Source: an uncultured Candidatus Saccharibacteria bacterium
GTDB taxonomy: Bacteria; Patescibacteriota; Minisyncoccia; Phycocordibacterales; UBA9973
DNA length: 64,000 bases
Direction: 5' to 3'
Assembly (NCBI GenBank): GCA_964646765.1
Contig: CAZYIA010000003.1
Location: 66,815-130,814 of the forward strand
Notes under the pieces: generated by a model
Told to the model about the DNA's origin: nothing
The model's input: only the letters and a program-made list of their open reading frames with translations
Database searches by the model: none
Part shown: positions 42,109 through 58,959 of the stretch, one piece after another
How the letters are laid out: the number at the start of each line of letters is the position of its first letter
Numbering within the stretch: the first letter of the stretch is position 1
Position numbers and translations under genes: made by a program

Positions 42109-42406
42109 CTATTCCTTGACTTGGAAGGGGAGAACGATACTATTGAGATATGGCGCAGCACGAACTGTATAATTTTGGGGAGTCGAACGATCACGATAAT
42201 CCACTCTTGAAACATATCTTGAAAGGGATGAATCTCACCAAAGAAAGCCAGGAAGAACAAGCCCAAAAAATAAAAAAGGCCCTTGAAGAAAAAGCAAAGC
42301 GGGAGCAGCTCTTTCAAGAGGGGAAACAGGGAGAAATCAACTTTCCTAATAAGCTTTCGTAAGAAAAAGTACCGTCGTTCGTCATTAGTAGTGTTAAAAG
42401 TTAAGT

Positions 42407-43222: not shown

Positions 43223-43235
43223 ATTTTCTTGTTAG

Positions 43236-43272
43236 AACAAGCGCCAAACCTAAAAGTTTGGCGCTTGTTTCT
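43236..43272 (+). terminator. Rho-independent terminator
   Basis: AACAAGCGCCAAAC-ctaaaa-GTTTGGCGCTTGTT. Confidence 0.7.
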
Positions 43273-43358
43273 TACTTGCAGGGTTTCTGGAAGCGTGGTA
43301 ATCTTACGACAGACGTCCCTCGCGGGCGTTTTAAATTAGCCAAAATACGTTTATCTAT

Positions 43359-43544
43359 ATGTCTATTACCTCATATCTTAAAGAAACACGTGCTGAACTC
43401 TCTCAAGTAACGTGGCCAACTTGGAACCAGGCAGTTCTCTTTACTGTTGCTGTTATTGTTATTTCACTTGCAGTCGCGTATTTTCTTGGCTTCTTTGATT
43501 TCCTCTTCTCACTCGGTCTTGGCAAACTCCTACAGCTCCGCTAA
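43359..43544 (+). CDS. secE: Preprotein translocase subunit SecE
   Basis: KETRAELSQVTWPTW...single TM helix. Conserved position upstream of nusG. Confidence 0.85.
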   Translation: MSITSYLKETRAELSQVTWPTWNQAVLFTVAVIVISLAVAYFLGFFDFLFSLGLGKLLQLR

Positions 43545-43578
43545 CGACCGTCTACGTTACTAACTAACTCTAGAATTT

Positions 43579-44127
43579 ATGGCAAAACAAGAACTCCAAG
43601 GTGAGCGAAACTGGTATGCAGTGCATACCTATGCTGGATACGAAAATGCAGTGCAGCGTAACTTAAAGCAGCGTATCGAATCGCTCGGCATGCAAGACAA
43701 AATTTTTAATGTCGTCGTGCCAACCGAAAAGAAAATCAAAATCAAAGCAGGGAAGCGCGTAGAAGTTGAAGAAAAAGTCTACCCAGGTTACGTACTCGTT
43801 GATATGGTGGTAACTGATGACTCCTGGTATGTTGTGCGTAACACCCCACGCGTAACCGGTTTCGTTGGTGCCGGTGTAAATCCAGTGCCGCTTAATAAGG
43901 ACGAAATGGCGATGCTCTTTAAATCAATGGATGATACTCAGACAGCTCGTCACAACATTGATCTCGTTACCGGTGAAATTGTTCGCATTGCAGACGGTCC
44001 GTTTAAGGATCTCGAAGGCAAAGTAGACGCAGTAGACCAAGAGCGTGGCAAGGTTCGAGTACTTGTTTCAATGTTCGGTCGCGAAACCCCGGTAGAACTT
44101 GATTTCTTACAGGTAAAAAAGATTTAG
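43579..44127 (+). CDS. nusG: Transcription termination/antitermination factor NusG
   Basis: NWYAVHTYAGYENAV (NGN domain) ... GEIVRIADGPFKDLEGKV (KOW domain). Confidence 0.9.
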   Translation: MAKQELQGERNWYAVHTYAGYENAVQRNLKQRIESLGMQDKIFNVVVPTEKKIKIKAGKRVEVEEKVYPGYVLVDMVVTDDSWYVVRNTPRVTGFVGAGVNPVPLNKDEMAMLFKSMDDTQTARHNIDLVTGEIVRIADGPFKDLEGKVDAVDQERGKVRVLVSMFGRETPVELDFLQVKKI

Positions 44128-44232
44128 TTTACAAGGTTTTTAAACCGTGCTAAAGTAATGCCCGTTACGCTTTCCAATTAAGAAATTAGACAGCTTCTAC
44201 GTTCTAATTTCTAGTATCTAAATTCTAAATTT

Positions 44233-44661
44233 ATGGCCGCAAAGAAAGTAACAAAAAAAGTAAAAGTTCGCGTTATAGGGGGCAAAGCTACCCCAGCGCC
44301 ACCACTTGGTCCAGCTCTTGGTCAGGCGGGTGTAAACATCGGTGACTTCGTACAGAAGTTTAACGCCGCTTCTCAGCAATTTGTTGGAGAAACTGTCGGT
44401 GTTGTTATCTCTGTCTACGAAGATCGAACCTATGATTTCGTCATTAAGACTCCACCGGTAATTAATTACCTTACGAAAGCCGCTGGAATTGAAAAAGGTT
44501 CAGGTAAGCCAAACACATCGAAAGTAGGCAAGATTACGAGAGCTCAGCTTAAGGAAATCGCCGAAAAGAAAATGCCTGATCTTAATGCTAATGACATCGA
44601 AGCCGCAATGAAAATCATCGCTGGCTCCGCTCGTCAGGCAGGTATCACGATCGTTGACTAA
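44233..44661 (+). CDS. rplK: 50S ribosomal protein L11
   Basis: [35 protein letters not shown]. Confidence 0.9.
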
Positions 44662-44677
44662 GTCTCTTGTTTTCAAA

Positions 44678-44702
44678 CAAAACCCCCAGAAAGGGGGTTT
44701 TG
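44678..44702 (+). terminator. Rho-independent terminator immediately after rplK
   Basis: AAAACCCCC-agaa-AGGGGGTTTTG. Confidence 0.75.
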
Positions 44703-44717
44703 TGTTATAGTGCCCAC

Positions 44718-45368
44718 ATGCAAAATCTCACCCAGCGCGATTATACAAAGCTTTTTATTTGTCTCACGCTCTATATTACGGCTCTTATTGCTTCAAATAC
44801 TTTAGGCATTAAGGTCATGCCATTTCTTTTTGGAACCCATCTTTCAGTTTCGGTATTTTACTTTCCAATCGTATTTTTGATGACTGACATTATCGGGGAA
44901 GTGTATGGTAAAGAGTGGGCTCGCCGCTTTGTGCTCGCTGGTTTTATTTCGGTGCTTGCCTTTCTCTTGTTTAATATTCTCTCAGTTATTACACCGTGGT
45001 CGGGGGCTGGGGCATGGGCGCATACTGCGTACAATACGCTCTACAGCGTTTCAATGCGAATCTCTGTTGCTTCAGTGCTCGCGTTCGTCATCGGCGAATA
45101 CCAAGATGTTTTTACTTTTTTCTTTTTTAAGGCAAAACAAGGAGACAAATATTTTTGGCTGCGTTCAAATCTTTCTAATATCTGGAGCCAATTTCTTGAC
45201 ACGGTGATCTTCATGACTGTGGCTTTTGCTGGGGTGTATTCTTGGCCAACACTTTTTATGATGATTATTCCGTGGTGGATATATAAAGTACTCATGGGTG
45301 TAGCTTTCACTCCGCTTTCATACCTAGGACTCGCCTTATTAAAGAGAGATGAAACCAAGCAAGCCTAA
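44718..45368 (+). CDS. YhhQ-family queuosine-precursor transporter
   Basis: FPIVFLMTDIIGEVYGKEWARRFV matches the YhhQ signature. Six TM helices. Confidence 0.7.
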   Translation: MQNLTQRDYTKLFICLTLYITALIASNTLGIKVMPFLFGTHLSVSVFYFPIVFLMTDIIGEVYGKEWARRFVLAGFISVLAFLLFNILSVITPWSGAGAWAHTAYNTLYSVSMRISVASVLAFVIGEYQDVFTFFFFKAKQGDKYFWLRSNLSNIWSQFLDTVIFMTVAFAGVYSWPTLFMMIIPWWIYKVLMGVAFTPLSYLGLALLKRDETKQA

Positions 45369-45873
45369 ATTAAAGACTCACTTTGTTGCCTATGTGGCAG
45401 CAAGTATAGATGGCCGCATTTCACTCGACGAAAAAACTGTGCCTGATTGGACAAGTAAAGAAGACTGGAAATTTTTTCAAAAAGGTCTTTCAAAAGCAGA
45501 TGCAGTTATTGCTGGCCGAAATACCTATCTAGCCGCACAAAAGAGGTTAGACAAAAGAAATACGTTTGTTTTTACAAGTACAGTGACGAAGTTAAGCAAA
45601 AAAGGTAACGTCATGTTTCTAAATCCGAAACATACAAACCTAAGTCAGCTGTTTCAAGAATATACAACCGTTGTTATTGTCGGTGGTGCACGAGTATATC
45701 AAACAATGCTTGAGCATAACATGCTTGATGAGCTGTTTGTTACTATCGAACCTTTAGTATTTGGCCGTGGCCAAACAATGTTTAGTAATGGAACAAAAAA
45801 TAGTAGACTCAAACTCAAAAATGTTCGAAAGTTAAATAAAAAAGGGACTCTACTTCTTCACTATGTACGTTAA
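45349..45873 (+). CDS. RibD C-terminal-domain / dihydrofolate-reductase-family protein
   Basis: HFVAYVAASIDGRISLDEKT...FKNAGLSKADAVIAGRNTY...VVIVGGARVYQ. Confidence 0.7.
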   Translation: MKPSKPKLKTHFVAYVAASIDGRISLDEKTVPDWTSKEDWKFFQKGLSKADAVIAGRNTYLAAQKRLDKRNTFVFTSTVTKLSKKGNVMFLNPKHTNLSQLFQEYTTVVIVGGARVYQTMLEHNMLDELFVTIEPLVFGRGQTMFSNGTKNSRLKLKNVRKLNKKGTLLLHYVR

Positions 45874-46561
45874 AGCAATTACAACAAAAGTTTTTCAGGA
45901 AAAAGAAAATCTTAACGATTTTATTCTCAAGTATCTTCCTCGTGTTTCTGAAGGTTCAGTTATTGTGGTGACCTCAAAAATTGTCGCCTTGGCTGAAGGG
46001 CGAACGGCTGTTTTTAAAAATCAAAAAGAAAAAGAAGTTCTCATCAAGAAAGAAAGTACTTTTGCCATCAAAACACCATTGGTGTGGCTCACTATTAAGG
46101 ATGGCACAGTTATGGCGAATGCTGGGGTAGACGAGTCAAATGCTCAGGGGAAAATTATTCTTTTGCCACAAGATAGTTTCCAGGCTGCAGAAAAACTGCG
46201 AATAGCACTTAAAAAGCATTACAAGGTTAAAAAGCTTGGCATCTTAATTACCGATTCTCGTCTTATGCCGCTCAGAGCTGGAGTGGTTGGTGTGGCGCTT
46301 GGGTACGCAGGATTTCAGGGATTAAAAAATTATGTTGGCAAAAAAGATATTTTTGGTCGGAAATTTAAATTTGAACAAACGGATATTGCTGATAGTTTAG
46401 CTACGGCCGCAGTGCTTACGATGGGTGAGGGTGCAGAACAAAAACCGTTAGCTCTTATAATAGAGGCTCCAGTTACCTTTACTAACCAAGTAAACAAAAA
46501 AGAGCTTCGCATTGATCCTAAGAAGGATCTCTATGCTCCTTTATTTAAGAAATTGAAATAA
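45863..46561 (+). CDS. CofE-like (F420-0:gamma-glutamyl ligase family) protein
   Basis: VIVVTSKIVALAEGR...GTVMANAGVDESNA...ITDSRLMPLRAGVVGVALGYAGF follows the CofE/F420_ligase fold. Confidence 0.65.
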   Translation: MYVKAITTKVFQEKENLNDFILKYLPRVSEGSVIVVTSKIVALAEGRTAVFKNQKEKEVLIKKESTFAIKTPLVWLTIKDGTVMANAGVDESNAQGKIILLPQDSFQAAEKLRIALKKHYKVKKLGILITDSRLMPLRAGVVGVALGYAGFQGLKNYVGKKDIFGRKFKFEQTDIADSLATAAVLTMGEGAEQKPLALIIEAPVTFTNQVNKKELRIDPKKDLYAPLFKKLK

Positions 46562-46563
46562 GT

Positions 46564-47568
46564 ATGGCAGTTCCACTACTTTCAAAAATTTTACCTCGCA
46601 TTGCTAAAAAAATCGGAGCTACAGTAGTTGTTGAACCAAAGTACGGTTATGTAGGTCAGATTATTTTTAAAAACGGCAAAAAGAAATATTTTCGGGTTTC
46701 TACTCTTGATATTAATACGGTTGGCTCTGTCGACATTGCTAAAGACAAAGGTTACGCCAAATTTTTTATGGAGCGAATGGGATATCCGGTAGCAGAAGGG
46801 AAAGTATTTTTTCGACCAAATTTTGCCAAAGCGATTGGTTCCCGAGAGAGTATTGAAGCTGCTTGGCGCTATGCTAAAAAACGAGGCGTACCGGTTATCG
46901 TTAAACCCAATAGTTTAAGTATGGGATTTGGTGTCGCTAAAGTTTCCACCAAGCAATCGTTTTTCCGTGCTGCGCGAGAAATTTTTAAAGCCGATCGCGT
47001 CATGCTTGTTGAAGAAGTGCTCATCGGTCGCGATTATCGCATTGTAGTGCTCGACAATAATGTTATTTCTGCCTACGAGCGCATGCCACTTGCAGTAATT
47101 GGTGATGGTAAAAGCAGTATCCGAGCGCTGCTAAAAAGATTACAGCAAGAGTTTGTGGCTAATGATCGTGATACAGTGATAAAAATGGACGACCCGCGAA
47201 TGCGCGAGGTACTTCTTCGGAGCAAAAAAACTTTTGCATCAGTTCCAAAGAAAGGGGAGCGCGTACAACTTCTTGATAACGCGAATCTTTCAACCGGAGG
47301 CAAAGCAATTGATGTAACTTCCGAGCTTCATCCTTCAATCAAAAAACTAGCCATCAAACTCACCAAAGATATGGGTCTCCGAATTTGCGGTGTTGATTTG
47401 ATGCTTTCGGAAAATGCAAAAGTTTCGCTCTCACAACAAAAGTACTGGGTTATTGAAGTAAACGGAGCTCCAGGACTTGACCACTATTTTGAAACAGGTA
47501 AGAAGCAACAAAAAATTGTTGAAGCGATGTATCTCAAAGTACTGAAAGCAATGGAGAAAGGCGCCTAG
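46564..47568 (+). CDS. ATP-grasp ligase (RimK/CofF/MptN-like)
   Basis: GVPVIVKPNSLSMGFGV (ATP-binding loop) ... RIVVLDNNVISAYERMP ... GVDLMLS ... EVNGAPG. Confidence 0.7.
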   Translation: MAVPLLSKILPRIAKKIGATVVVEPKYGYVGQIIFKNGKKKYFRVSTLDINTVGSVDIAKDKGYAKFFMERMGYPVAEGKVFFRPNFAKAIGSRESIEAAWRYAKKRGVPVIVKPNSLSMGFGVAKVSTKQSFFRAAREIFKADRVMLVEEVLIGRDYRIVVLDNNVISAYERMPLAVIGDGKSSIRALLKRLQQEFVANDRDTVIKMDDPRMREVLLRSKKTFASVPKKGERVQLLDNANLSTGGKAIDVTSELHPSIKKLAIKLTKDMGLRICGVDLMLSENAKVSLSQQKYWVIEVNGAPGLDHYFETGKKQQKIVEAMYLKVLKAMEKGA

Positions 47569-48158
47569 CGACTATTCATGTTTTTGAAAATGGTATAGAG
47601 CGGACCAGAACAAGTTGGGTTTTTTGCGGCAACTGCTGTTTCAAATACTTTTTGAAAAGCGTTCTGGAATGAGAGAGTGTTGTCGTAAGTGCACGTGAGA
47701 TCTTGGTTTACCCAAGCAGGGTTAGCAACTTCTGTGTAGCGAAAAGTAACTTGGCAGCCACCTGATACTTTTTTCACAATGGTTAATTTTTCGCCGCCGA
47801 GGCCTGAAACGGTCGTGGTGACAGTCGCCGGGGAACATGTTTTGAAATTTTCCTCAAAGCAGCTTTGTGTTCCACAGGTTACTGTTGAAGTTACTGACCC
47901 TTCGTATGAAATGTTTGCGTGTAACGTACCAACCTGTTGATCATCTTGGGTTGTGAGCGGGTAGTCGTTTTCTACTTTTGTAGAAACAGATTCAGTGGTT
48001 GTTATAGGGGAGTCACTAACTAGAGTGGGTGGTGGAGTAAACTCAGTTTCAGGAGGCGTTGCTATTTTTGGCTGTGACTCGAAAAAGATTCCCAAAGCAA
48101 TTATGGCTATAAGGCCAAAACCGAGAATCCCCAAAGCAAATACTTTTGGTGACATATG
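47565..48158 (-). CDS. Hypothetical secreted/membrane-anchored protein
   Basis: Signal-anchor MSPKVFALGILGFGLIAIIALGIFF, a Pro/Thr linker, a Cys-containing globular domain. Confidence 0.4.
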   Translation of the reverse strand, partial: HMSPKVFALGILGFGLIAIIALGIFFESQPKIATPPETEFTPPPTLVSDSPITTTESVSTKVENDYPLTTQDDQQVGTLHANISYEGSVTSTVTCGTQSCFEENFKTCSPATVTTTVSGLGGEKLTIVKKVSGGCQVTFRYTEVANPAWVNQDLTCTYDNTLSFQNAFQKVFETAVAAKNPTCSGPLYTIFKNMNSR

Positions 48159-48210
48159 GCAAAGTATACCACTGTAGCCCCTCGTTCGCTCTTTTGCTAT
48201 GCTAGGAGCT

Positions 48211-48699
48211 ATGATGTCTGACGTACATAAACGCCCTTCTTGGGATGAATACTTTATGGGTATTGCCAAGATGGTGGCTACTCGAGCTACTTGTGATCGT
48301 GGCCGCTCTGGTGCTGTAACTGTAATGGGTCATCACATTTTAACTACCGGCTATGTTGGTGCGCCGCCAGGCATTGCGCATTGTGATGATGTTGGTCATG
48401 AAATGTCGACGGTTATTGATGACGCAGGGAATGAATCCAAACACTGTATCCGCTCAACCCATGCCGAACAGAATGCTATTGTTCAAGCTGCTCGAAATGG
48501 AGTCACCCTTAAAGGAGCAACACTCTATTGTAAAATGACTCCATGCTATACCTGCGCCAAACTTATTATTACTGCTGGTATTGCGCGCGTTGTTGCCGAA
48601 AAAGATTATCATGTCGGGAATCGTACGAAGGAGGTCTTTAAAGAAGCTGGTATCCAGTTTGACCTTTTAGGAGAAATAGAAGCATATCCAAATCAATAA
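48211..48699 (+). CDS. dCMP deaminase / CMP-dCMP-type zinc deaminase
   Basis: HAEQNAI...PCYTCAKLI zinc-ligand motifs (HAE plus PCxxC). Confidence 0.85.
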   Translation: MMSDVHKRPSWDEYFMGIAKMVATRATCDRGRSGAVTVMGHHILTTGYVGAPPGIAHCDDVGHEMSTVIDDAGNESKHCIRSTHAEQNAIVQAARNGVTLKGATLYCKMTPCYTCAKLIITAGIARVVAEKDYHVGNRTKEVFKEAGIQFDLLGEIEAYPNQ

Positions 48700-48702
48700 T
48701 AT

Positions 48703-49035
48703 ATGTCAGTTGATCTCAAACAACTTCAAAAAGAAGTAATGCGCAACAAAATAGAGAAGGGTTTTAATACTCAAGATATGGCTCTTGAATTTTGTCGTGC
48801 ACACGAGGAACTATCCGAGGCATTTTCTAAATATAATAAAGCTGAAGCAGGCGTGGCAGAGGAATTTGCCGATGTCGCCATTTTTCTCTTGGGAATGTGT
48901 GAAACCCTTGGGTACGATTTGGAGGCTGAATTGGTTCGAAAAATTGAGATAAATAAAAAACGAAAATACCGTAAGGAAAAATCCCCCGATGGTAAAGACG
49001 TTTTCATTCGCGTAAAAACCGATGAAGATCCATGA
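48703..49035 (+). CDS. MazG-like nucleotide pyrophosphohydrolase
   Basis: EExxEAxxK...EEFADVAIFLLGM pattern (EExxE / ExxD metal motifs). Confidence 0.7.
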   Translation: MSVDLKQLQKEVMRNKIEKGFNTQDMALEFCRAHEELSEAFSKYNKAEAGVAEEFADVAIFLLGMCETLGYDLEAELVRKIEINKKRKYRKEKSPDGKDVFIRVKTDEDP

Positions 49036-49639
49036 TCCTATTGAAATAATTACTTTCGATTTTTTCGGAGTGCTTTGTGCCCCAATGTACGGGGGATTAT
49101 TACGCGATTTATTTCCTGGTGATCAGGTCGCGTGGAGAAAATGGATGGACCTTGTTGAGTTTGAAGTTGATATCGGAACAGTCACTGAAGATGCTTTTAT
49201 TGAGCTTCTTTCTAAAGAGTGCGGTGTTCCTGCGCCAGAATTAAAGAATCGTTCCTATGAATACGCAAAACTGAATGAATCACTCTTTGAGATTATTGCC
49301 GACCTTAAGCATTACTATCGTGTTGGTCTTTTAACTAACGCTCCACGAAGTATCATTGAGACAGCACTTAAGGAAAAATTGGAGCTTTTTAATACGGTGA
49401 CCATTTCAGGTGATATTGGCATTATCAAGCCGCACGCGGAAATTTACGAACAGTACATTAAAGCTTGTGCGCTGCCGGCGGACAGAATATTTTTTACTGA
49501 TGATAACGTACGAAATGTTGCCGCAGCTCGAGTTTCAGGAATAATTGCAACCCAGTATCTCACCATTCCTCAGTTTTTACTTGATCTTGAGCACGAGGGT
49601 GTTGTATTCCCCCGATACCAAACACTCGAGAGTATCTAA
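49022..49639 (+). CDS. HAD-superfamily hydrolase
   Basis: ITFDFFGVL (motif I) ... LLTNAP (motif II) ... FFTDDNVRN (motif IV). Confidence 0.7.
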   Translation: MKIHDPIEIITFDFFGVLCAPMYGGLLRDLFPGDQVAWRKWMDLVEFEVDIGTVTEDAFIELLSKECGVPAPELKNRSYEYAKLNESLFEIIADLKHYYRVGLLTNAPRSIIETALKEKLELFNTVTISGDIGIIKPHAEIYEQYIKACALPADRIFFTDDNVRNVAAARVSGIIATQYLTIPQFLLDLEHEGVVFPRYQTLESI

Positions 49640-50127
49640 AGGTGCTTCTCGTAGATTACAAATGAATAGGGATAGGCATGAGCTTCATCTGGAGCGTAAT
49701 CGTCTCGGAAGGCCTCTTTCCATTCTTGGTCAATTTCAGGAAAGAAAGCATCTGCGTCAAAAGAACTATTAACACGGGTAATATATAGCCGGTTAGCATA
49801 GGGGAGAAAGAGTTTATAAATTTGTGCTCCTCCAATGACAAAAATTTCTTCATCAGAATCCTTAAAAAGATTCAACGCTTCTTCAACACTGCTCACATTT
49901 TCACATCCCGGAGCTTGATAATTTTCAGTACTTCGAGAGAGGACAATGTTGCGGCGGTTAGGAAGTGGTCGGCCAATAGATTCGAACGTTTTACGGCCCA
50001 TAATTACCGGGTGGCCACTAGTAGTCTCCCGAAAATGTCGCATATCTGCTGGCAAATCCCACAGAAGCTTATTATCTTTCCCGAGTTCATTATTTATACC
50101 AATGGCTGCAATCAGAGAGAGAATCAT
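49636..50127 (-). CDS. folA: Dihydrofolate reductase
   Basis: ISLIAAIGINNELGKDNKLLWDLPADMRHFRETTSGHPVIMGRKTFESIG...FVIGGAQIY. Confidence 0.9.
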   Translation of the reverse strand: MILSLIAAIGINNELGKDNKLLWDLPADMRHFRETTSGHPVIMGRKTFESIGRPLPNRRNIVLSRSTENYQAPGCENVSSVEEALNLFKDSDEEIFVIGGAQIYKLFLPYANRLYITRVNSSFDADAFFPEIDQEWKEAFRDDYAPDEAHAYPYSFVIYEKHL

Positions 50128-50217
50128 AGAGAGAGTGTACCACGGATCATAAAAAGTTAATCCTCTGTTTAGAGTTTCATTAGCAGCGATTTTCTATAGT
50201 TTTAAAAACCGTTCCCA

Positions 50218-50850
50218 ATGAAAAATCTATATTTCCTTACGTTATTACTCATAGCAGTAATCCTCCCCACAGCACGTGCACAAGTTGGACCTTGCCTGCA
50301 CAATCCAATTTTTTCTGACACCTGCTGCCCAATTGTAATGAATGAAATCCTTCCTGAAGGCTACAGCGGCGAAACTTGGGTTGAACTGTATAATTGCAAC
50401 CCTGATACCGCTGTAGTTCTGGAAGGGTGGTTTCTTTCTCCAAAACCGGATAGTACTTTCTTTGTTCCGTTTCCTCTCGGATACACAGTCTTACCAAATT
50501 ATTATCGAGTATTTTCGCTTCCGTTTACCATTTCGCGGTCGTTTGGGTTACTACAACTCTTTCGGCCAGACTCAACACTCGCGTACGGCATTACCTTTGA
50601 TAATGTTGCTATCGGCGAGTCGGTTGGTTATTGCGATTTAATAATTACTCGACAAACTCCCACTCCTGGATTGCCAAATAGTTGTACGGTAACAAGTATT
50701 TCTGAAGTTCCTTATACGGAAGGGAAACAGACGTTTCTCTATGACCTACTTGGCCGTAGGGTTGCTAGCCCTGTGTCAGGAATCTTTATTTCAGTCACAG
50801 AAGAACGAGGACTACGTTTAGTTAAGAAACTAACTTTACTTCGCGAATAG
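50218..50850 (+). CDS. Secreted lamin-tail-domain (LTD) protein with T9SS-type C-terminal sorting domain
   Basis: Signal peptide. INEILPEGYSGETWVELYNCNPDTAVVLEGWFL matches LTD (iNEi...ewvElyN...v.L.gw.L). The C-terminus FLYDLLGRRVASPVSGIFISVTEERGLRLVKK resembles the Por_Secre_tail / T9SS type-A CTD. Confidence 0.6.
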   Translation: MKNLYFLTLLLIAVILPTARAQVGPCLHNPIFSDTCCPIVMNEILPEGYSGETWVELYNCNPDTAVVLEGWFLSPKPDSTFFVPFPLGYTVLPNYYRVFSLPFTISRSFGLLQLFRPDSTLAYGITFDNVAIGESVGYCDLIITRQTPTPGLPNSCTVTSISEVPYTEGKQTFLYDLLGRRVASPVSGIFISVTEERGLRLVKKLTLLRE

Positions 50851-50853
50851 AAC

Positions 50854-50876
50854 AAAACCCGGTACCTGCCGGGTTT
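50854..50876 (+). terminator. Rho-independent terminator
   Basis: AAAACCCGG-tacctg-CCGGGTTT. Confidence 0.65.
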
Positions 50877-50920
50877 CGCGCTGCTAAGCTAGCATTGACT
50901 CCATTTGTGCTTGTGGTGCA

Positions 50921-51370
50921 ATGAAGAAACAACCCTTTTATATGAGCAATAAAAATAATGATGTACAAGATAAGCTAAAAGAGAGGATTAGGGGAGTTAC
51001 CAATAATCCCAGCCTTCAAAGAAACATTTACAAAGATGTAAAAGAATACTCTGAGGGTGTTCAAATAAATTTCCTCTTCTTTTTAGAAGACCGTGAAGCC
51101 ATTATTAGACGACCACTCAAAGTTGAGTGCCATAAAGTTGATTTACCAGAAGATGACCCTCTATCATGGACAGAATTCTGCATTCCCGGAGATATTCTTT
51201 TGTCAGTTAATCGTTTCTGGTTTCAAGGTTTTCTAATAGATGGTCAGGAAAGCAACAAGGTATTTCCCGTTCTTTACTTCTATATAGAAAATTTTAGGTT
51301 ACCTTCTCTTCCTTATGGAAAAAGAATCCTCACTCGCTGTTTTCTCAGCGACTTCATCAAAGCAGTGTAA
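50921..51370 (+). CDS. Hypothetical protein in a low-GC islet
   Basis: 149-aa ORF. Local GC is lower than the surroundings. No family recognised. Confidence 0.3.
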   Translation: MKKQPFYMSNKNNDVQDKLKERIRGVTNNPSLQRNIYKDVKEYSEGVQINFLFFLEDREAIIRRPLKVECHKVDLPEDDPLSWTEFCIPGDILLSVNRFWFQGFLIDGQESNKVFPVLYFYIENFRLPSLPYGKRILTRCFLSDFIKAV

Positions 51371-51410
51371 ATAGCAGATTGCTTGTATATCCCACACGCG
51401 ATCTGTTTTT

Positions 51411-51836
51411 TTATTTACGTCGATTTTGAAAATACGCAACTGCTGGAAATGATGCTTTAGCGATAGGTGAGGGAAGCGCATTAAGTGAAAACCACTCCAG
51501 CGCCTCACATTTTTCTGGCTCCTGAATTTTTGGAACACCTCTAATAATTTTCGCCTTAAAAATATTAGTTACCCAATGTTGGCTTTCTTCAGGTAAAAGA
51601 ACCTCATAAGCTGGAAGTTGTTCTAGAATTTCAATAGCTACATCAAGCTCTTCTTTCACTTCGCGAATAGCGGTTTGTTTGAGTGTTTCGCTAAAATCAA
51701 CTGTACCGCCAGGCACGCTCCATGCACCAACCTCATTTTTTGATTTTACCCCGCGCTTCATGAGTAAAAGCTCATCTTTTTCATTGAAGATGAAAACACC
51801 AACACCAAGGCCAATATAATCAACGCCAGCTTTCAT
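51411..51836 (-). CDS. NUDIX hydrolase (MutT-like)
   Basis: Nudix box GGTVDFSETLKQTAIREVKEELDV, matching Gx5Ex7REUxEExGU. Confidence 0.8.
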   Translation of the reverse strand: MKAGVDYIGLGVGVFIFNEKDELLLMKRGVKSKNEVGAWSVPGGTVDFSETLKQTAIREVKEELDVAIEILEQLPAYEVLLPEESQHWVTNIFKAKIIRGVPKIQEPEKCEALEWFSLNALPSPIAKASFPAVAYFQNRRK

Positions 51837-51838
51837 AT

Positions 51839-52777
51839 TTATACTGCAATCGGTGCACGAATCCCTTCATGCGACGTGTAGTTTTCGAGCGTGAAGTCAT
51901 CGATAGTAAAGTCGGCGATATTTTTTACATTTGGATTTAATTTCATTGTTGGCATTGGGTAGAGAGAATCTTTTCGTGAAAGTTGCAGTTTAGCCTGTTC
52001 GATATGATTTGAATACAAGTGAACATCACCACCGGTCCACACAAAATCTCCTGGTTCGAGGCCGGTTACTTGTGCAACCATCATAACTAAAAGGGCATAC
52101 GAGGCGATATTAAATGGAACACCCAAGAAGGTATCGCAACTTCGCTGATAGAGCTGGCATGAAAGTTTTCCGTTCGCTACATAGAACTGAAAGAAACAGT
52201 GACATGGCGGCAGTCCTGCTTTTGCCATCTCATCGATGTCGGCAACATTCCATGCTGAAACAATTAATCGGCGAGAGTTCGGATTATTTTTGATGTCCTC
52301 AATAACTTTTCCAAGTTGGTCGATGTGTTTACCGTTCGGTGCTGGCCAACTTCGCCACTGGTATCCATAAATTGGGCCAAGGTTGCCATATTCTTTGGCA
52401 AATGCCGGATCGGTTTTTATTTTCTCTACGAACCCTTTCATTTGGCTGTTCCAGTCTTCACCATTCACTTCAGGAATCGGGAGATTGTTTCTTTGAAGAT
52501 ATGCCTTAAATGGCCACTCGTTCCAGATAGGGACATTGTTGTCGGCCAAGTATTTTAAATTAGTGTCACCACGAACAAACCAAATGAGTTCGTGAATAAT
52601 TGATTTCAGCGGTACTTTTTTTGTAGTGAGTAGGGGGAAGCCTTTAGAAAGATCAAATCGCATCTGGTATCCAAAGATGCTTTTTGTGCCGGTACCGGTG
52701 CGGTCACTTTTATCCGTGCCCTCGTTTATAAGCTTTTCGAGGAGAGGGAGGTACTCTCGGTCAACGTGATATTCCAT
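51839..52777 (-). CDS. thyA: Thymidylate synthase (ThyA)
   Basis: [30 protein letters not shown]...[32 protein letters not shown]...[26 protein letters not shown]. Start at the internal Met (MEYHVD); the track ORF extends 14 codons further. Confidence 0.9.
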
Positions 52778-52916
52778 AGGCCGATTATAGGGCAAAGTGC
52801 ACTCTTTTTCCATTTGCAAAAAATATAGGAGGAGTACAATGAAAATAAGTCCGGTCCTGTACCGTCCCCAAACTGAATATTTGTTATAACCCTTTTAAAA
52901 ACCAAAACTTAAGCAC

Positions 52917-53234
52917 ATGAAAGCTAAATTACTCATTGTGACTGTAGCTCTGCTGTTATGCCAGCTCTGTCACGCACAGCAAAACGTTTTAAACGCATCA
53001 AGCGAAGTAAAGATTTACCCCAATCCTGCTGCCGGTACGTTATATGTAGTTGTAGATACTGCATCTAAAGTAACTATCTTTAACCTATTGGGAGAACCGC
53101 TGCCTGCTGCGAATGACAAATTAGTCTCTGCTGGTCGCACCGGCTTTGATTTTACTGAAGTACCGCAAGGGTACTATCTGGTGCAAGTACTTTCGAGAGA
53201 TGAAAAGTACACAAAACGAATTTTGAAGGAATAA
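52917..53234 (+). CDS. Small secreted protein consisting of a signal peptide plus a T9SS C-terminal sorting domain (Por_Secre_tail-like)
   Basis: SP MKAKLLIVTVALLLCQLCHA. Then VKIYPNPAAGTLYVVVDTASKVTIFNLLGEPL...DFTEVPQGYYLVQVLSRDEKYTKRILKE, matching the KIYPNPA ... IFNLLG ... G.YLV.V ... K.LK CTD pattern typical of Bacteroidota. Confidence 0.6.
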   Translation: MKAKLLIVTVALLLCQLCHAQQNVLNASSEVKIYPNPAAGTLYVVVDTASKVTIFNLLGEPLPAANDKLVSAGRTGFDFTEVPQGYYLVQVLSRDEKYTKRILKE

Positions 53235-53431
53235 TTTTTACCCAACATGTTTTAAAAGATTAGCCCTGGCTTCCCGTCAGGTGCTTTTCTTACCTGGATG
53301 AGGGTTGACAAATACATATGGTTGTGTTAATTTTTAACTACCATTCTCACTTATACATAATCGGGAATGACGATTATGGAAATCAGCGTACGCAGTTGTT
53401 GTGTTAGTTCTGATTAGCCATACACAACAAT

Positions 53432-54889
53432 ATGCAGAATATGCACCGAAGTGGTGCGCGCGGTAAAAATCCGACGCGTACCGGAACTTCGCAGGGAGGG
53501 CGAAAACCCCGCTCTAGCGGAGGACATTTTAATAGAGACGTCCAGCACCATGGAGGAGCGTTTCGGGCCGAAGGCCCACGACCATCATTTGGTCGTCGTA
53601 TTCACGTGCCTGGCGAAAGTCTTGGGCAGGGCAGCGAAAGCCGTCAATCAAAGCCGCAAGGCTTCCGTAGCCACGGAAGCAGTACTTTTCGTGCTCCGCG
53701 AACCGGAGGCTTTCGTGGCCGCTCGCAGGGCGGTTTTCGTGGAGGTGGAAGTCGTGGTGGTAATCGAGGCGGTGGTCGCAGTCGCGGCGAACGCATTGAT
53801 TACAGTCGTTTTATTCGTAAGGCAGAACTCGTAGAAGTAAAACCATACGTAGCCCAGCATTCATTTGTTGATTTTCCTTTTGACGCTCGTCTTGCAAAAA
53901 ATATAGAAAAGAAAGGATACGAAAAACCAACGCCAATTCAAGATCAAGCGATTCCATTTAGTTTGCTTGGCCGTGACATTTTTGGTTTGGCTAATACAGG
54001 AACAGGTAAAACAGCAGCCTTTCTCTTGCCGCTCATTCAAAAAGTATTAAACAGTCGCAAAGAACAAGTTCTTATTCTTGCGCCAACACGTGAACTTGCT
54101 CTCCAAATTGAAAAAGAATTTATTGAGTTTACCTACGGCACCAGCTTGTTTTCTGTGTCAGCTGTTGGTGGTATGCCAATTTTCCGTCAGATTACGAAAC
54201 TTAAGCGCGGAGTTTCCTTTGTTATTGGAACCCCAGGCCGTGTAAAAGATCTGATTGATCGCAAAGCACTTAATCTGGGAACTTTCAAATCAATCGTGCT
54301 CGATGAAGCTGATCGCATGCTTGATATGGGATTCCGTGATGACATGGAGTTTGTGATGAATAAAATGGGGGAAGATCGCCAAACGCTCTTTTTCTCAGCA
54401 ACAATCTCGCCAGACATTCGTAAACTTTCTGAAAAGTATCTCAAGGATCCTGAGTTTATTTCAGTTGTTGTTCGCGAAACTTCAAAGAATATTGATCAGG
54501 ATGTTGTCCGAGTTCTTTCTCGTGACAAGAAAATTGATCAGCTCCACGATATTCTTATCGGTGAGCAGGACAGCAAGATTCTTATCTTTAGTGAAACTAA
54601 GCGTGATGTTGATCGCCTTGCACGTGAATTAGTCGCTCGCGGTTTCCGCGTTGGGGCTATTCACGGCGACAAGCGTAACCGTGAACGTGTACGCACTCTT
54701 GAAGATTTCAAAACTGGCCGCATCGGTATTTTGATTGCTACCGACGTTGCTGCTCGCGGACTTGATATCCCAGATGTGACACATGTTATTAACTACGATG
54801 TGCCGCAAACGTACGATACCTACGTACACCGCATTGGCCGAACTGGCCGCGCAGGGAAGACTGGAAAAGCGTTAACCTTCGTTCATTAG
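53432..54889 (+). CDS. DEAD-box ATP-dependent RNA helicase with N-terminal Arg/Gly-rich (RGG) extension
   Basis: Q-motif/PTPIQ, GTGKT (motif I), PTRELA, DEAD (LDEADRMLDMGF), SAT, HRIGRTGRAG. The N-terminal approximately 120 aa are RGG/FRG repeats. Confidence 0.9.
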   Translation: MQNMHRSGARGKNPTRTGTSQGGRKPRSSGGHFNRDVQHHGGAFRAEGPRPSFGRRIHVPGESLGQGSESRQSKPQGFRSHGSSTFRAPRTGGFRGRSQGGFRGGGSRGGNRGGGRSRGERIDYSRFIRKAELVEVKPYVAQHSFVDFPFDARLAKNIEKKGYEKPTPIQDQAIPFSLLGRDIFGLANTGTGKTAAFLLPLIQKVLNSRKEQVLILAPTRELALQIEKEFIEFTYGTSLFSVSAVGGMPIFRQITKLKRGVSFVIGTPGRVKDLIDRKALNLGTFKSIVLDEADRMLDMGFRDDMEFVMNKMGEDRQTLFFSATISPDIRKLSEKYLKDPEFISVVVRETSKNIDQDVVRVLSRDKKIDQLHDILIGEQDSKILIFSETKRDVDRLARELVARGFRVGAIHGDKRNRERVRTLEDFKTGRIGILIATDVAARGLDIPDVTHVINYDVPQTYDTYVHRIGRTGRAGKTGKALTFVH

Positions 54890-54894
54890 GACTA

Positions 54895-54930
54895 AAGTCA
54901 AAAAGCCGCCTAAAGGCGGCTTTTTGACTT
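54895..54930 (+). terminator. Rho-independent terminator
   Basis: AAGTCAAAAAGCCGCC-taaa-GGCGGCTTTTTGACTT, a perfect 16-bp stem. Confidence 0.8.
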
Positions 54931-55003
54931 TATCGGTATTTTTAGTACAGTTCGGATAACCTATAAAAACATTAAATATTTTTTTTAACCTCAATCAATT
55001 TTT

Positions 55004-55378
55004 ATGAAGCCACAAAACAGCAATGGCGTTACTTTGGTTAGCTATATTCGCCAAATAGCTATTTTACTTAGCAATGTTCTTTACTTATTCGATGCTCCCG
55101 AGCGCGAAAAACATAAGGACCATAGCGAGCCCCCGAAAGATAAGACCTTAGGCGGCAATATTCCGCACGCATCATGGGTATTACCTATCATCATCAATAT
55201 CCTTCGGAGCGTACCCGCCCCTGACATGGAGCAGGAACTAAAGTTCCTAACTGCCGACCTCGACCTGACCGTGGAGGATAATTTCAAAAAGTTGCAGGAT
55301 TTTGTGGCTAAGCTCAAAGCGTTTAACAGCGCCTTTTCGCAAACCAGCGACAAGTATGAAGAGCATATCCACGATTAA
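55004..55378 (+). CDS. Hypothetical protein in a compositionally atypical islet
   Basis: 124-aa ORF with GC-richer codons than its neighbours, followed by hairpin GTGCAG...CTGCAC plus a T run (55407-55446). No family recognised. Confidence 0.3.
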   Translation: MKPQNSNGVTLVSYIRQIAILLSNVLYLFDAPEREKHKDHSEPPKDKTLGGNIPHASWVLPIIINILRSVPAPDMEQELKFLTADLDLTVEDNFKKLQDFVAKLKAFNSAFSQTSDKYEEHIHD

Positions 55379-55546
55379 CCAATTCAGCCGGTTACAAAAT
55401 GAGAAGGTGCAGCTAAACTTTACGGTTTATCTGCACTTTTTCTTTTTATCTTTTTCAGTGTATGATGGGGGCACGTAACCTCGTTCAGGCTTATGGTATA
55501 ACGATTCCACAACGCTTTTCCTATTATTTCTTAAGCTTATTTTGCT

Positions 55547-56803
55547 ATGCACTATCTCGAACAAGACCCTGAAATTTTCGCCGCTTTAAAAGGTGAAGAA
55601 AAGCGCCAAAAAGAAGGCCTCGAACTTATTCCTTCGGAAAACTACGTTTCCAAAGCCGTGCTTGAAGCGAACGGTTCTATTTTCACCAACAAATACTCAG
55701 AAGGATATCCAGGTCGCCGTTACTATGGTGGACAAGAATTTACTGATGTTGTTGAGCGTTTAGCAATTGAGCGCATTTGTAAACTCTTTAACTGTAAATT
55801 TGCCAACGTTCAGCCGCACTCAGGTGCACCAGCAAACTTAGCTGTGTATGCCGCACTCCTTGAACCAGGCGACACTGTGCTTGGTATGGATCTCTCACAT
55901 GGCGGTCACTTAACGCACGGTCACCCAATGACGCTGCCTGCTAAGATCTACAAATTCGTCACCTACAAGATGAAAGATCCTGACACAGGTGAAATTGATT
56001 ACGATCATCTCCGTCAAATGACACTTGAACACAAACCAAAAATTATTTTGGCTGGTTTTTCTGCATACCCTCGCACTCTCGACTACAAAAAATTTGTTGA
56101 GATTGCTAAAGAAGTTGGGGCAATTACGATGGCTGACATGGCACACATCGCAGGTTTGATTGCTGGTAAGGCGCTCCGCAATCCATTTGATGATGGTTTT
56201 GATATCATCACGTCAACTACTCATAAAACTCTTCGTGGTCCACGCGGGGGGATCATTCTCACTCGAGAAAATGAAGAGATCGCCAAGAAAATCGACAAAT
56301 CTATTTTCCCTGGAATTCAAGGTGGTCCACACATGCACACTATCGCTGCGAAGGCCGTTGCCTTCGGCGAAGCATTAACGCCTGCGTATCAAACCTACGT
56401 ACAGCAGATTTTGAAAAATGCCAAGGCAATGGAAGCTGTGCTCAAAGAGAAAGGTGTTCGGATGATTGGTGGGGGAACCGATAACCACCTTATCCTCGCC
56501 GACGTATTTGGCTCACTTGGTGTTACTGGAAAAGAAGCGCAAACAGTACTCGACGAAGTTGGAATTACACTCAACATGAACTCAATTGCTGGTGACACGC
56601 GCAAGCCGCTCGATCCATCAGGTATTCGTTTTGGCACTCCAGCTATCACTACTCGTGGCTTTAAAGAAAAAGAATGTGCCGAAGTTGCCGAACTCTTGAT
56701 TGAAACACTCAAAAATAAAGACGACGCAGAAAAGAAAAAAGAAATTCGGGCAAAAGTTTTGGCACTTGCTGAAAAATTCCCGATTCCGGAGAAGTTTGTG
56801 TAG
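55547..56803 (+). CDS. glyA: Serine hydroxymethyltransferase
   Basis: YYGGQEFTDVVERLAIERI...VQPHSGAPANLAVY...LSHGGHLTHG...TTHKTLRGPRGG (PLP lysine region). Confidence 0.9.
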   Translation: MHYLEQDPEIFAALKGEEKRQKEGLELIPSENYVSKAVLEANGSIFTNKYSEGYPGRRYYGGQEFTDVVERLAIERICKLFNCKFANVQPHSGAPANLAVYAALLEPGDTVLGMDLSHGGHLTHGHPMTLPAKIYKFVTYKMKDPDTGEIDYDHLRQMTLEHKPKIILAGFSAYPRTLDYKKFVEIAKEVGAITMADMAHIAGLIAGKALRNPFDDGFDIITSTTHKTLRGPRGGIILTRENEEIAKKIDKSIFPGIQGGPHMHTIAAKAVAFGEALTPAYQTYVQQILKNAKAMEAVLKEKGVRMIGGGTDNHLILADVFGSLGVTGKEAQTVLDEVGITLNMNSIAGDTRKPLDPSGIRFGTPAITTRGFKEKECAEVAELLIETLKNKDDAEKKKEIRAKVLALAEKFPIPEKFV

Positions 56804-56807
56804 CTCT

Positions 56808-57506
56808 ATGTCGGCTACGAAGAAAAAAGGAAAATTAATTGTTATTGATGGAACTGACGGCTCGGGTAAAGCAACTCAAGCTGCGCTTTTGGCTGCGCAT
56901 TTAAAGAAAGCAGGCTATAAAGTAGCAACCATTGATTTTCCGCAATATGGCGATAATTTTTTTGGTGAATTTCTTGGACGTTGTCTGTCGCGTCAGTACT
57001 ATAACTTCGTGAAGGTCCACCCTAAAATTGCTTCAGTTTTGTATGCAGCAGACCGTTGGGAGTCAAAAGAAAAAATTGAAGGTTGGCTTAACAAAGGTTA
57101 CATCGTGATTGCTGATCGCTATGTGTCAGCAAACCAAATTCACCAAGGTGGAAAAATAACGAGCACTAAGAAGCGCCGAGACTTTTTGAAGTGGCTCGAT
57201 GAGATGGAATACAACGTATTTAAAATTCCACGACCAAACCTGGTACTATACTTGTCACTACCACTTACTACCATGCGCTCTCTGATTAAAGAGCGCAATA
57301 AAAAAGAAGTCCGTGCCTATCTTGGCAAGGGGAAGGACGTACACGAAAAAGACATGGCGCACTTAGCGAATGCTCGCGAGAGTGCACTCAAGTTAGTGAA
57401 AGAGCTCAACAATTTCAAAAAAATTGACTGTGCTCCTGAAGGTAACCTTTTACCACCACCAGTTATTCACGAAAAAGTTTTTGAAGAAGTCTCAAAAATT
57501 ATATGA
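56808..57506 (+). CDS. tmk: Thymidylate kinase (dTMP kinase)
   Basis: P-loop IVIDGTDGSGKATQ, DRY-like ADRYVSANQIHQGG, and a lid region. Confidence 0.85.
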   Translation: MSATKKKGKLIVIDGTDGSGKATQAALLAAHLKKAGYKVATIDFPQYGDNFFGEFLGRCLSRQYYNFVKVHPKIASVLYAADRWESKEKIEGWLNKGYIVIADRYVSANQIHQGGKITSTKKRRDFLKWLDEMEYNVFKIPRPNLVLYLSLPLTTMRSLIKERNKKEVRAYLGKGKDVHEKDMAHLANARESALKLVKELNNFKKIDCAPEGNLLPPPVIHEKVFEEVSKII

Positions 57507-58018
57507 ACGCACGCATTCCAGTCGTTAATGAACAAGATGAAGTAATTGGCTACCGTATTCGCCGAGAATTGCAACCTGGCGATATTTTTCGAGTCACTGG
57601 TCTTTGGATTTATGATACCGAAGGTACTATTTTACTAGCTCGTCGAGCGGAAACTAAAGCGCTCCATCCAGGTTTATGGGCCCTTGGCGTTGCCGGGACT
57701 GTTGAAGAAGGGGAAACATATGACAGTAATATCGTGAAAGAAATGGGAGAAGAAATTGGCCTTACAGGTTACACCCCAACGTTCTTAAATAAAGAATTAC
57801 GCGACACTCCAGTGAAGGGGCTTCGTCGGTTTGCTTCGCACTACGCGGTGACTATCCCGCACGATTACCCATTTAAATTAAAGGAAGATGAAGTGGCAGA
57901 AGTTAAATGGTTCACCCCATCTGAAATTGACCAAGCAGTAACCGAGCATCCTGAATTATTTGTGCCAACATTTGTTTTGTACTATAAAGATTTTCTCTAT
58001 GCGGATTCCCATCGTTAA
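57503..58018 (+). CDS. NUDIX-family hydrolase (paralog 1)
   Basis: IPVVNEQDEVIGY...LLARRAETKALHPGLWALGVAGTVEEGETYDSNIVKEMGEEIGL (Nudix box). Confidence 0.7.
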   Translation: MNARIPVVNEQDEVIGYRIRRELQPGDIFRVTGLWIYDTEGTILLARRAETKALHPGLWALGVAGTVEEGETYDSNIVKEMGEEIGLTGYTPTFLNKELRDTPVKGLRRFASHYAVTIPHDYPFKLKEDEVAEVKWFTPSEIDQAVTEHPELFVPTFVLYYKDFLYADSHR

Positions 58019-58553
58019 TGAACAAGATGAAATAATTGGAGAGGAGGAGCGCGCAGTCATTCACCGTGATGGTTTACGACATCGGGAGATTCACGTATGG
58101 CTCGTTACTCCTCAAAAAGAATTTATCTTCCAAAAACGAGGTCCTCATCAAGATACCTGGCCCGGATATTTAGACGTTACCGTTGGGGGACATGTTGATA
58201 CTAAAACTGAATCATACGAAGAGTGTGCGAAACGAGAACTGTATGAGGAGACAGGGACGAAACTACCGATTACTCTTATCATAAAGCGTTATTCAGAAAG
58301 TTATGATCCAAATACTCAAACCAAGAACCACGCTTTTCGTGCCGTATTCGGGGCGATTTATACGGGAGCATTACATGATTTAAAAGTTGAAGAGGGTAAT
58401 GGTCAAGGTTTTATAAAATATTCCCTCGAAGAATTGAAATCTCTATCAGAAGAAGATAGAAAGAAATTTATTCCGCGATATTTTACCGAAGCTTATTTTG
58501 ATTTATTTCAGAAAATTATAACTACTCTTTTTAGTCATGAATCTCAAAATTAA
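57999..58553 (+). CDS. NUDIX-family hydrolase (paralog 2, tandem duplicate)
   Basis: IPIVNEQDEIIGE...FQKRGPHQDTWPGYLDVTVGGHVDTKTESYEECAKRELYEETG (canonical Nudix box). Confidence 0.7.
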   Translation: MRIPIVNEQDEIIGEEERAVIHRDGLRHREIHVWLVTPQKEFIFQKRGPHQDTWPGYLDVTVGGHVDTKTESYEECAKRELYEETGTKLPITLIIKRYSESYDPNTQTKNHAFRAVFGAIYTGALHDLKVEEGNGQGFIKYSLEELKSLSEEDRKKFIPRYFTEAYFDLFQKIITTLFSHESQN

Positions 58554-58959
58554 AAAACTGAAACCGGAAGCTAAACTTCCTCGCTATGCGCATCCTGGCG
58601 ATGTTGGTTTGGATTTGTTTGCCATGGAAACAGTAACGATTGCTCCAGGCGAGCACTATCGTTTTTGGCACGGTTTCGCGCTTGAATTTCCAGAAGGTTT
58701 CGCCGCGTGTGTGATGGATAAATCGAGCATTTCAAAAGCAGGGCTTAAAACCATGGGCGGTGTATTTGATGCTGGCTACAGAGGTGAATACAATACACAC
58801 TTAGTAAACCTTGGAAAAGAAGCGTACACATTTGAAGCAGGTGATAAAGTTGCTCAATTAGTTATTTTCCCAGTTGCACAGGCCAACATTGAAGAGGTGA
58901 GTGAGCTCACAGAATCATCTCGTGGTGAGGGAAGCTTTGGTTCCACAGGGAAAAAATAA
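58537..58959 (+). CDS. dut: dUTP diphosphatase
   Basis: dUTPase motifs AHPGDVGLDL, GVFDAGYRGE, RxxQLV and the C-terminal SSRGEGSFGSTG motif V. Confidence 0.9.
   Translation: MNLKIKKLKPEAKLPRYAHPGDVGLDLFAMETVTIAPGEHYRFWHGFALEFPEGFAACVMDKSSISKAGLKTMGGVFDAGYRGEYNTHLVNLGKEAYTFEAGDKVAQLVIFPVAQANIEEVSELTESSRGEGSFGSTGKK

Follow-up and report, generated by a model that had tools for sequence, protein, structure and literature searches.

Results

The window analysed here is a 64-kb stretch of contig CAZYIA010000003.1, in which two small plus-strand genes encode proteins of 105 and 210 amino acids (aa), at positions 52917-53234 and 50218-50850, respectively. The original prediction had read both proteins as carrying Por_Secre_tail domains, the C-terminal domains (CTDs) that mark cargo of Bacteroidota's type IX secretion system (T9SS), in a genome that otherwise looked like one of the candidate phyla radiation (CPR) or Gram-positive-like. 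Both open reading frames (ORFs) are present as claimed, and the motifs KIYPNPA, IFNLLGE, GYYLVQV and KRILKE are all found. We regard it as almost certain that the 105-aa protein carries a genuine type A T9SS CTD, and we find that the two genes are real, fast-evolving under purifying selection, and vertically inherited.

A free C-terminal domain behind a predicted signal peptide

The 105-aa protein matches the curated profiles PF18962 (39.3 bits, cut-off 27) and TIGR04183 (39.9 bits, cut-off 23), in both cases over residues 33-104. By these limits the CTD proper lies at 53013-53228 (plus strand), includes the motifs YPNPA, FNLLGE, GYYLVQV and KRILK, and stops one residue ahead of the stop codon. 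A predicted Sec signal peptide, MKAKLLIVTVALLLCQLCHA|QQ, takes up residues 1-20 (52917-52976, plus strand) and leaves a Gln at +1; judged by eye, it has a hydrophobic core (2.67) followed by an AxA-like H-A|Q site. The alignment of orthologs (A2) holds proteins of 98-106 aa, and M1, K2, L6, V8, L13, C15, A20 and Q21 are invariant in five of them. Cys15, although invariant, is not part of a lipobox: it falls within the signal peptide but comes after L, I, V or F. The pattern [LVI][ASTVI][GAS]C is found in neither the 105-aa nor the 210-aa protein, and reading of the two sequences showed no LPXTG in either. Because only the signal peptide and ~12 residues precede the domain, the mature protein would be essentially a free CTD of ~85 residues.

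A word-indexed homolog search with the 105-aa protein alone returned only the protein itself, and it was the exhaustive search and the family alignment that revealed relatives. Exhaustive phmmer against 1.84 billion representatives gave 282 matches at E<=1e-3, and in nearly all of them query residues ~25-105 align with the final ~80 residues of proteins that are between 80 and >3000 aa long. The matches lie at the C-termini of proteins of every length, and the domain therefore behaves as a C-terminal tag. When the family profile is compared with the PDB, it finds solved CTDs: the C-terminus of 5jvk (E 2.7e-8), the 75-residue CTD chains 8glk_D (6.4e-7) and 8glj_D (9.7e-7), the mirolase CTD 8qb1 (7.9e-5), and the RgpB CTD 5hfs (0.036). 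These matches indirectly back a 7-stranded, 3+4 immunoglobulin-like (Ig-like) β-sandwich as the probable fold of the 105-aa protein. It has been shown experimentally that T9SS recognition depends on the glycine of Lβ3β4 (FDMNGRR in RgpB) and on a lysine of β7 (PMC11285876). The 105-aa protein has FNLLG59E and K100RILK104, with G59 invariant among orthologs, and both recognition elements occur in both families, as FNLLGE and KRILK in the 105-aa family and as YDLLGRR and VKKL in that of the 210-aa protein.

A lamin tail-like protein with a probably shortened tail

The 210-aa protein is built, in order, from a signal peptide, a Cys-rich linker, a domain resembling the lamin tail domain (LTD), and a CTD-like tail. 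Its predicted signal peptide, MKNLYFLTLLLIAVILPTARA|QV (residues 1-21; 50218-50280, plus strand), was also judged by eye, ends in …PTARA|QV and has Gln at +1; the A-Q junction is retained in four of four full-length homologs. The LTD-like, Ig-like domain covers residues ~38-150 (50329-50667, plus strand) and is sub-threshold for PF00932, the match over residues 38-84 scoring 19.7 bits, below the gathering score of 34.3. In the family alignment (A1, six proteins), PF00932 is matched by all six members at E<=0.1, with a best E of 1.3e-7, and one of them, P0006, was already annotated with this domain; a dense invariant block spans residues 41-156.

The last 59 residues, LPNSC...FLYDLLGRRV...SGIFISV...VKKLTLLRE (50671-50847, plus strand), are where the second CTD had been claimed. 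The 210-aa protein has no Por_Secre_tail match at E<=1 in Pfam or NCBIfam; its tail scores 0.4-4.3 bits, i.e. undetected, with our own hidden Markov model (HMM) of 144 CTD sequences, and a narrow HMM of two CTD sequences likewise missed it. Profile-profile comparison alone found the likeness. The last ~60 columns of the family, compared by hhalign with a CTD alignment built from the matches of the 105-aa protein, gave a probability of 91% and a score of 33.0 over 59 columns (the E-value being that of a single comparison), and the two align in order, interrupted once by a 14-residue deletion after the LLG motif and before the GxF/Y motif. As controls, 100 column shuffles scored 9.6 on average (standard deviation 1.9, maximum 15.7), and the reversed alignment 8.9. 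Because the curated models fail and the profile-profile comparison matches, we take the tail for a shortened relative of CTDs and not for a canonical Por_Secre_tail, and we conclude that it is probably a truncated CTD derivative without roughly one β-hairpin (~14 residues). The claim that both proteins carry Por_Secre_tail thus stands for the 105-aa protein, which passed PF18962 and TIGR04183, and falls for the 210-aa tail, where curated profiles fail. Duplication within the genome was considered as an origin of the tail and is unsupported, because the tail scores 27.8 against the 105-aa family and 33.0 against CTDs generally, and so is no closer to its neighbour.

Gln at +1 after the predicted cleavage site occurs in three proteins of the window, those at 52917-52976 (…HA|QQ), 50218-50280 (…ARA|QV) and 20249-20340 (…AKA|QT), the last of them unrelated to the other two; A|A is seen instead in four further secreted proteins from the window. 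As a sign of T9SS cargo, this resemblance to the "Q-rule" of Bacteroidota cargo is weak.

Locus layout

The two genes stand on the plus strand among minus-strand nucleotide-metabolism genes, and each is divergent from a gene of the thymidylate cycle, with gaps of 90-97 bp. The 210-aa gene is divergent from folA, which encodes dihydrofolate reductase (DHFR; PF00186; 49636-50127, minus strand), across a 90-bp gap, and the 105-aa gene is divergent from thyA (PF00303; 51839-52819, minus strand) across ~97 bp. Between them lie a 149-aa AT-rich ORF (50921-51370, plus strand), in a variable slot adjoining the 210-aa gene, and a NUDIX gene (PF00293; 51411-51836, minus strand); a DEAD-box helicase gene follows the 105-aa gene (53432-54889, plus strand). 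This layout matches the gene calls and Pfam labels on public contigs with identical proteins, and the interleaving of the CTD ORFs with folA and thyA-NUDIX, as originally described, is borne out by the ORF list and the Pfam labels. A consensus scan placed a promoter-like site, TTTGCA-16-TACAAT, 5' of the 105-aa gene (52813-52840, plus strand), in a scan whose count of such sites is not above shuffle expectation, and a terminator-like hairpin with a T-run 3' of it (53265-53281, plus strand), one of nine such sites against 3.2±2.1 in shuffles.

Two short ORFs had been noted for their shifted base composition, and this we can confirm: the ORF at 50921-51370 has a GC content of 0.358 (z -2.8), and that at 55004-55378 has a GC content at third codon positions (GC3) of 0.544 (z +3.5) and a codon-use z of -4.2. 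Both are without a family assignment, and Pfam and NCBIfam give no match for the first. In relatives, the first slot holds a 577/565-aa Cys-rich gene or a 140-aa gene, and the second is empty or holds a 96-aa gene; the ORF at 55004-55378 may be no real gene. The 149-aa ORF was compared with the 577-aa gene that shares its slot in relatives, and the idea that it is a fragment of that gene was rejected. A ~575-aa CxxC-rich protein is also encoded elsewhere in the window (30893-32632); it has no Pfam match and is 40% identical (E 3e-158) to the gene directly after the 210-aa homolog in relatives. Copies of this family lie at 10664-12397 (minus strand) of locus L006 and at 10665-12362 (minus strand) of locus L004; the family is multi-copy, and its position shifts between genomes.

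Conservation and selection

The exact proteins, in the same gene order, are found on separately assembled contigs: one from SRR11845619 (110 kb), one from SRR11845634 (26 kb), and a 208-kb contig. In loci L006-L010 and on JGI contig 3300050046, folA is divergent from a homolog of the 210-aa gene, and thyA from a CTD-only gene that the DEAD-box helicase gene follows in the same direction; the relatives that keep both slots have DEAD helicases 55-80% identical to that of the window. The pairing of folA with the 210-aa gene is also kept in L004, and the order thyA, CTD gene, helicase is also kept in L012 and on a 1.7-kb contig with a helicase 55% identical. L004, a locus of a Saccharibacteria metagenome-assembled genome (MAG), keeps the 210-aa homolog and has a membrane protein in place of the CTD gene. 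GC and GC3 of the two CTD genes are usual for the window (GC z +0.1 and -0.3). The chimeric assembly that the original prediction had raised is refuted by the independent contigs with the same order and by the same slots in diverged relatives, and we are as good as certain that the locus is not an assembly artefact. Recent insertion was also rejected, given the ordinary GC, the conserved slots in diverged relatives, and the saturated synonymous divergence (dS).

Every ortholog retains an intact reading frame, start codon and signal peptide. Between lineages, dS is saturated and the ratio of nonsynonymous to synonymous divergence (dN/dS) is ~0.2. The values are 0.15-0.19 for the 210-aa family and 0.23 for the CTD-only gene in the close pair L006 and L009. 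In that same pair, the CTD proteins are 88% identical, and the flanking ThyA and SHMT 99-100%. The two genomes are otherwise near-identical, and dS is 0.24 in the CTD-only gene vs. 0.02-0.13 in flanking genes; this excess hints at local recombination or hypervariability.

Relatives outside the lineage

The CTD-only proteins form six 90%-identity clusters at 134-171 bits, after which there is a gap down to <=66 bits. Below the gap are "T9SS type A sorting domain-containing proteins" of ~100-115 aa from Flavobacteriaceae, Maribacter, Aquimarina and other Bacteroidota, and one small CTD-only protein of this Bacteroidota type is encoded next to lpxD, a marker of diderm genomes. A scan of JGI metagenome contigs gave 80 loci with generic CTD similarity (23-38% identity), none with thyA/folA/210-aa synteny. 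A scan of viral contigs gave no relative, and there is therefore no sign of a phage vector. The 64-kb window holds two CTD-type tails, and the other ORFs of the fetched relatives hold no further ones.

The simplest history would be a single old acquisition of a minimal gene, signal peptide plus CTD, from a Bacteroidota-like donor, while the LTD-CTD gene may have been acquired separately or earlier. Horizontal acquisition from Bacteroidota had been proposed before; as an old event it agrees with nearest outside relatives that are Bacteroidota, and as a recent event it does not agree with the host-like composition and vertical inheritance of the genes.

Host lineage and secretion machinery

Among the products of the window are a sortase and three giant proteins of 767-1410 aa, each with PG_binding_1 at its end; VKOR, ribonucleotide reductase (RNR), SecE-NusG-L11 and an extended series of nucleotide-metabolism genes are also present. 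The GTDB representative "uncultured Candidatus Saccharibacteria bacterium" has a homolog of the 210-aa protein on one of its contigs, and this contig is syntenic with the window; between the two, NusG is 85% identical, L11 82%, thyA 75%, and the DEAD helicase 69%. The sortase, the PG_binding_1 tails and the synteny with the Saccharibacteria MAG agree with the label "CPR / Gram-positive-like", and the host is very likely a CPR bacterium.

No T9SS or outer-membrane component was found among the window ORFs of >=120 aa, nearly all of which were scanned with Pfam; PorK/L/M/N, Sov/SprA, PorV and PorU are all missing from this set, and to that extent the earlier statement that the window shows no T9SS machinery is borne out. 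It has been proposed that CPR bacteria have no outer membrane (10.1101/2025.01.22.634366). T9SS genes are reported to be absent outside the phyla of the Fibrobacteres-Chlorobi-Bacteroidetes (FCB) group, species without T9SS have no CTD proteins, and T9SS reviews describe CTD proteins and T9SS genes as co-occurring (PMC11285876).

Several other features of the window were observed. The three giant secreted proteins are consecutive (1682-12082; 1410, 1255 and 767 aa) and carry GLUG, M26-N, Laminin_G_3, Big_5 and CHB_HEX_C_1 modules ahead of their PG_binding_1 ends, and the cluster looks like the wall-anchored surface-protein cluster typical of an epibiont. At 58981-62100, directly after the dUTPase gene, there is a 1039-aa protein with Peptidase_S74, an endosialidase chaperone of phage tail-fibre type, which is kept at the same position in relatives at 1010-1115 aa. 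Nucleotide-metabolism genes are unusually dense for a CPR genome at 27065-30837 and 41074-58959: we find the large and small subunits of RNR, DHODH, dCMP deaminase, a MazG-like gene, a HAD gene, two DHFR-type genes (a RibD_C/DHFR gene at 45349-45873 and that at 49636-50127), thyA, three NUDIX genes, SHMT, thymidylate kinase and dUTPase.

Discussion

Domain identity, architecture, synteny, selection and lineage can all be read from the data. Taking them together, we hold it somewhat better than an even bet that the two proteins are descendants of T9SS cargo that entered by an old transfer and have been kept as Sec-exported β-sandwich proteins in a lineage without a T9SS. Both small proteins would descend from cargo of the Bacteroidota/FCB type, one gene having been cut down to a signal peptide and a type A CTD (~85 aa when mature), the other joining a signal peptide and an LTD Ig-like domain to a CTD minus ~14 residues. 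They would have entered the ancestor of a Saccharibacteria subclade horizontally, long ago, and would later have been inherited vertically beside folA and thyA, evolving fast but under purifying selection. After Sec export and cleavage of the signal peptide at A|Q, the proteins are most likely released or held, perhaps loosely wall-associated, at the cell surface. As compact Ig-like β-sandwiches, they could have a binding or a structural role there, plausibly where the epibiont meets its host or other cells. In a cell type that would have no outer membrane, Sov/SprA, PorV or PorU, the domain could not act as a T9SS tag. Among the explanations that the original prediction had offered, use of the domain as a stand-alone Ig-like module seems to us the most plausible, as an inference.

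Several points weigh against this explanation. The single-sequence AlphaFold2 model of the 105-aa protein is unreliable (pLDDT 53), with five strands where they are expected and the middle unmodelled, and a Foldseek search of the PDB with this poor model gave only noise, FERM and lipocalin; the model of the 210-aa family, made from the six-sequence alignment, is unusable (pLDDT 40). The donor is judged from the best hits of a short, fast-evolving domain and not from a phylogeny, and the Saccharibacteria label comes from one MAG record title and from gene content. The absence of T9SS and outer membrane from the genome as a whole is deduced from lineage and literature, with 64 kb of it seen. The donor phylum, this genome-wide absence, the export, the extracellular location, the function and the binding are all inferred. 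In addition, the motifs read by the T9SS are retained, and they could still meet a T9SS-like partner or, equally, answer a need of folding.

Another explanation is that the CTD is still a sorting signal, serving an undescribed export or attachment pathway specific to CPR bacteria, with the two proteins as its cargo. The 210-aa tail sits at the extreme C-terminus behind a passenger, the classical position, and is conserved in six of six homologs, and the genes nearby include a sortase and further means of wall anchoring. However, the 64-kb window holds only two such tails, and the remaining ORFs of the relatives that were fetched hold none; the 105-aa protein lacks a passenger to be sorted, the two tails are unequal in length and no closer to each other than to CTDs generally, and both proteins are devoid of a lipobox and of any motif of the LPXTG type. 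We consider such a pathway improbable.

It is similarly doubtful that the two genes are decaying leftovers of transferred cargo genes, without a current function and heading for loss. One gene has lost its passenger and the other part of its CTD, and the CTD-only gene is missing from the matching slot of the Saccharibacteria MAG locus L004, all of which would be expected of relics. Decay is, however, at odds with a dN/dS of 0.15-0.23 and with frames, starts and signal peptides that are intact across lineages in which synonymous sites are saturated. Small CPR genomes quickly shed useless DNA, which also counts against leftovers.

A further explanation is that the free CTD protein, and perhaps the LTD protein, is a mimic or decoy, secreted by an epibiont toward the T9SS of a Bacteroidota host or neighbour. 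Its partner could be the shuttle PorV, the translocon SprA/Sov, or a sensor resembling PorY, and its effect would be adhesion or interference with the partner's secretion or gliding. It is suggestive that motifs for T9SS recognition have been conserved over a long vertical descent in a lineage without apparent need of them, and that isolated CTDs do bind T9SS parts, as in PDB 8glj and 8glk, where 75-aa CTD chains were solved. In PorA, the CTD by itself serves PorY as a ligand and was found bound to PorV (PMC12152298), which also counts in favour of a mimic. The CTD gene evolves faster than its neighbours (88% vs. 99-100% identity, L006/L009), as would fit an interaction protein. On the other hand, the recognition motifs double as core elements of the fold, and an externally added CTD would have to get to where the translocon faces the periplasm. 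The known hosts of cultivated Saccharibacteria are Actinomycetota, and these are not known to have a T9SS, which counts against a mimic. CTDs are, moreover, poorly interchangeable even among Bacteroidota species (PMC11285876). On this balance, a mimic strikes us as improbable.

An artefact, whether a chimeric join, contamination by Bacteroidota, or a contig from a T9SS-bearing FCB diderm, would agree with the tie of Por_Secre_tail to T9SS-bearing FCB bacteria otherwise (PMC11285876) and with the two neighbouring short ORFs of odd composition, but we give it next to no credence given that at least three independent contigs share an identical arrangement, that diverged relatives have the two genes in the same slots, that both genes match the window mean in GC and GC3, that the contig has a sortase, PG_binding_1 tails and synteny with a Saccharibacteria MAG, and that the odd ORFs are separate genes in variable slots.

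The domain family itself is known, and what is new is its conservation in a Saccharibacteria lineage, in one copy without a passenger and one that is truncated; we found no paper that connects Saccharibacteria or Patescibacteria with CTDs of the T9SS type. Within a Saccharibacteria subclade, purifying selection maintains a bona fide type A CTD, which contradicts the usual rule that CTD proteins are found only where the genome has a T9SS. As descendants of T9SS cargo kept without a T9SS, the two proteins would be a clean case of a secretion tag outliving its secretion system, and a record of gene flow from Bacteroidota-like donors to CPR bacteria. The 105-aa protein may also be useful as a natural minimal CTD, in which folding motifs could be separated from recognition motifs. 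If it were true that the protein targets the T9SS of a neighbour, this would make it an inter-phylum interaction factor of a new kind; CPR epibionts would then have co-opted the secretion signal of another phylum for attachment or interference, and the clade might live on Bacteroidota and not on Actinomycetota.

Comparison with known systems

The 210-aa protein can be placed beside bacterial LTD (PF00932) surface proteins, since six of six members of its family match LTD. It differs from other proteins of this kind in having a single sub-threshold domain, a CTD-like tail, and no enzymatic partner domain. A lipoprotein with LTD repeats, on a contig labelled Eggerthellaceae, is a distant relative, with 31% identity over residues 39-174. 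This 524-aa lipoprotein (locus L005, 7797-9371) has repeated LTD modules and adjoins a β-barrel-like protein; because the signal peptide of that neighbour is Gram-negative in style, mis-binning of the contig is possible.

As for type A CTDs (PF18962 / TIGR04183), the 105-aa protein passes both curated models. The domain forms the extreme C-terminus of a protein that begins with a predicted Sec signal peptide, it has the PNPA, LLG, GxYxV and KxxxK-type motifs, and its family profile matches solved CTDs. Unlike the type A cargo of Bacteroidota, it occurs in a Saccharibacteria/CPR host that presumably lacks an outer membrane, and the window shows no part of a T9SS; a passenger is missing from the 105-aa protein, and the tail of the 210-aa protein is 14 residues shorter and fails the curated models.

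PorA of Porphyromonas gingivalis (PGN_0123) is described as the smallest verified type A cargo, with 246 aa and a 135-residue region before its CTD (PMC12152298). Like the 105-aa protein it is a small CTD protein, its CTD is itself functional, and A|Q is likewise where its signal peptide is cleaved (PMC12152298). It differs in its length (246 aa vs. 105 aa) and in acting in a T9SS-bearing cell, and the two are likened here by description and not by sequence.

The next-best relatives of the 105-aa protein are the small CTD-only proteins of Bacteroidota (~100-115 aa). They differ in sequence (19-38% identity, <=66 bits) and in belonging to genomes that are expected to have a T9SS, yet they share with it the same minimal architecture of a signal peptide followed by a CTD.

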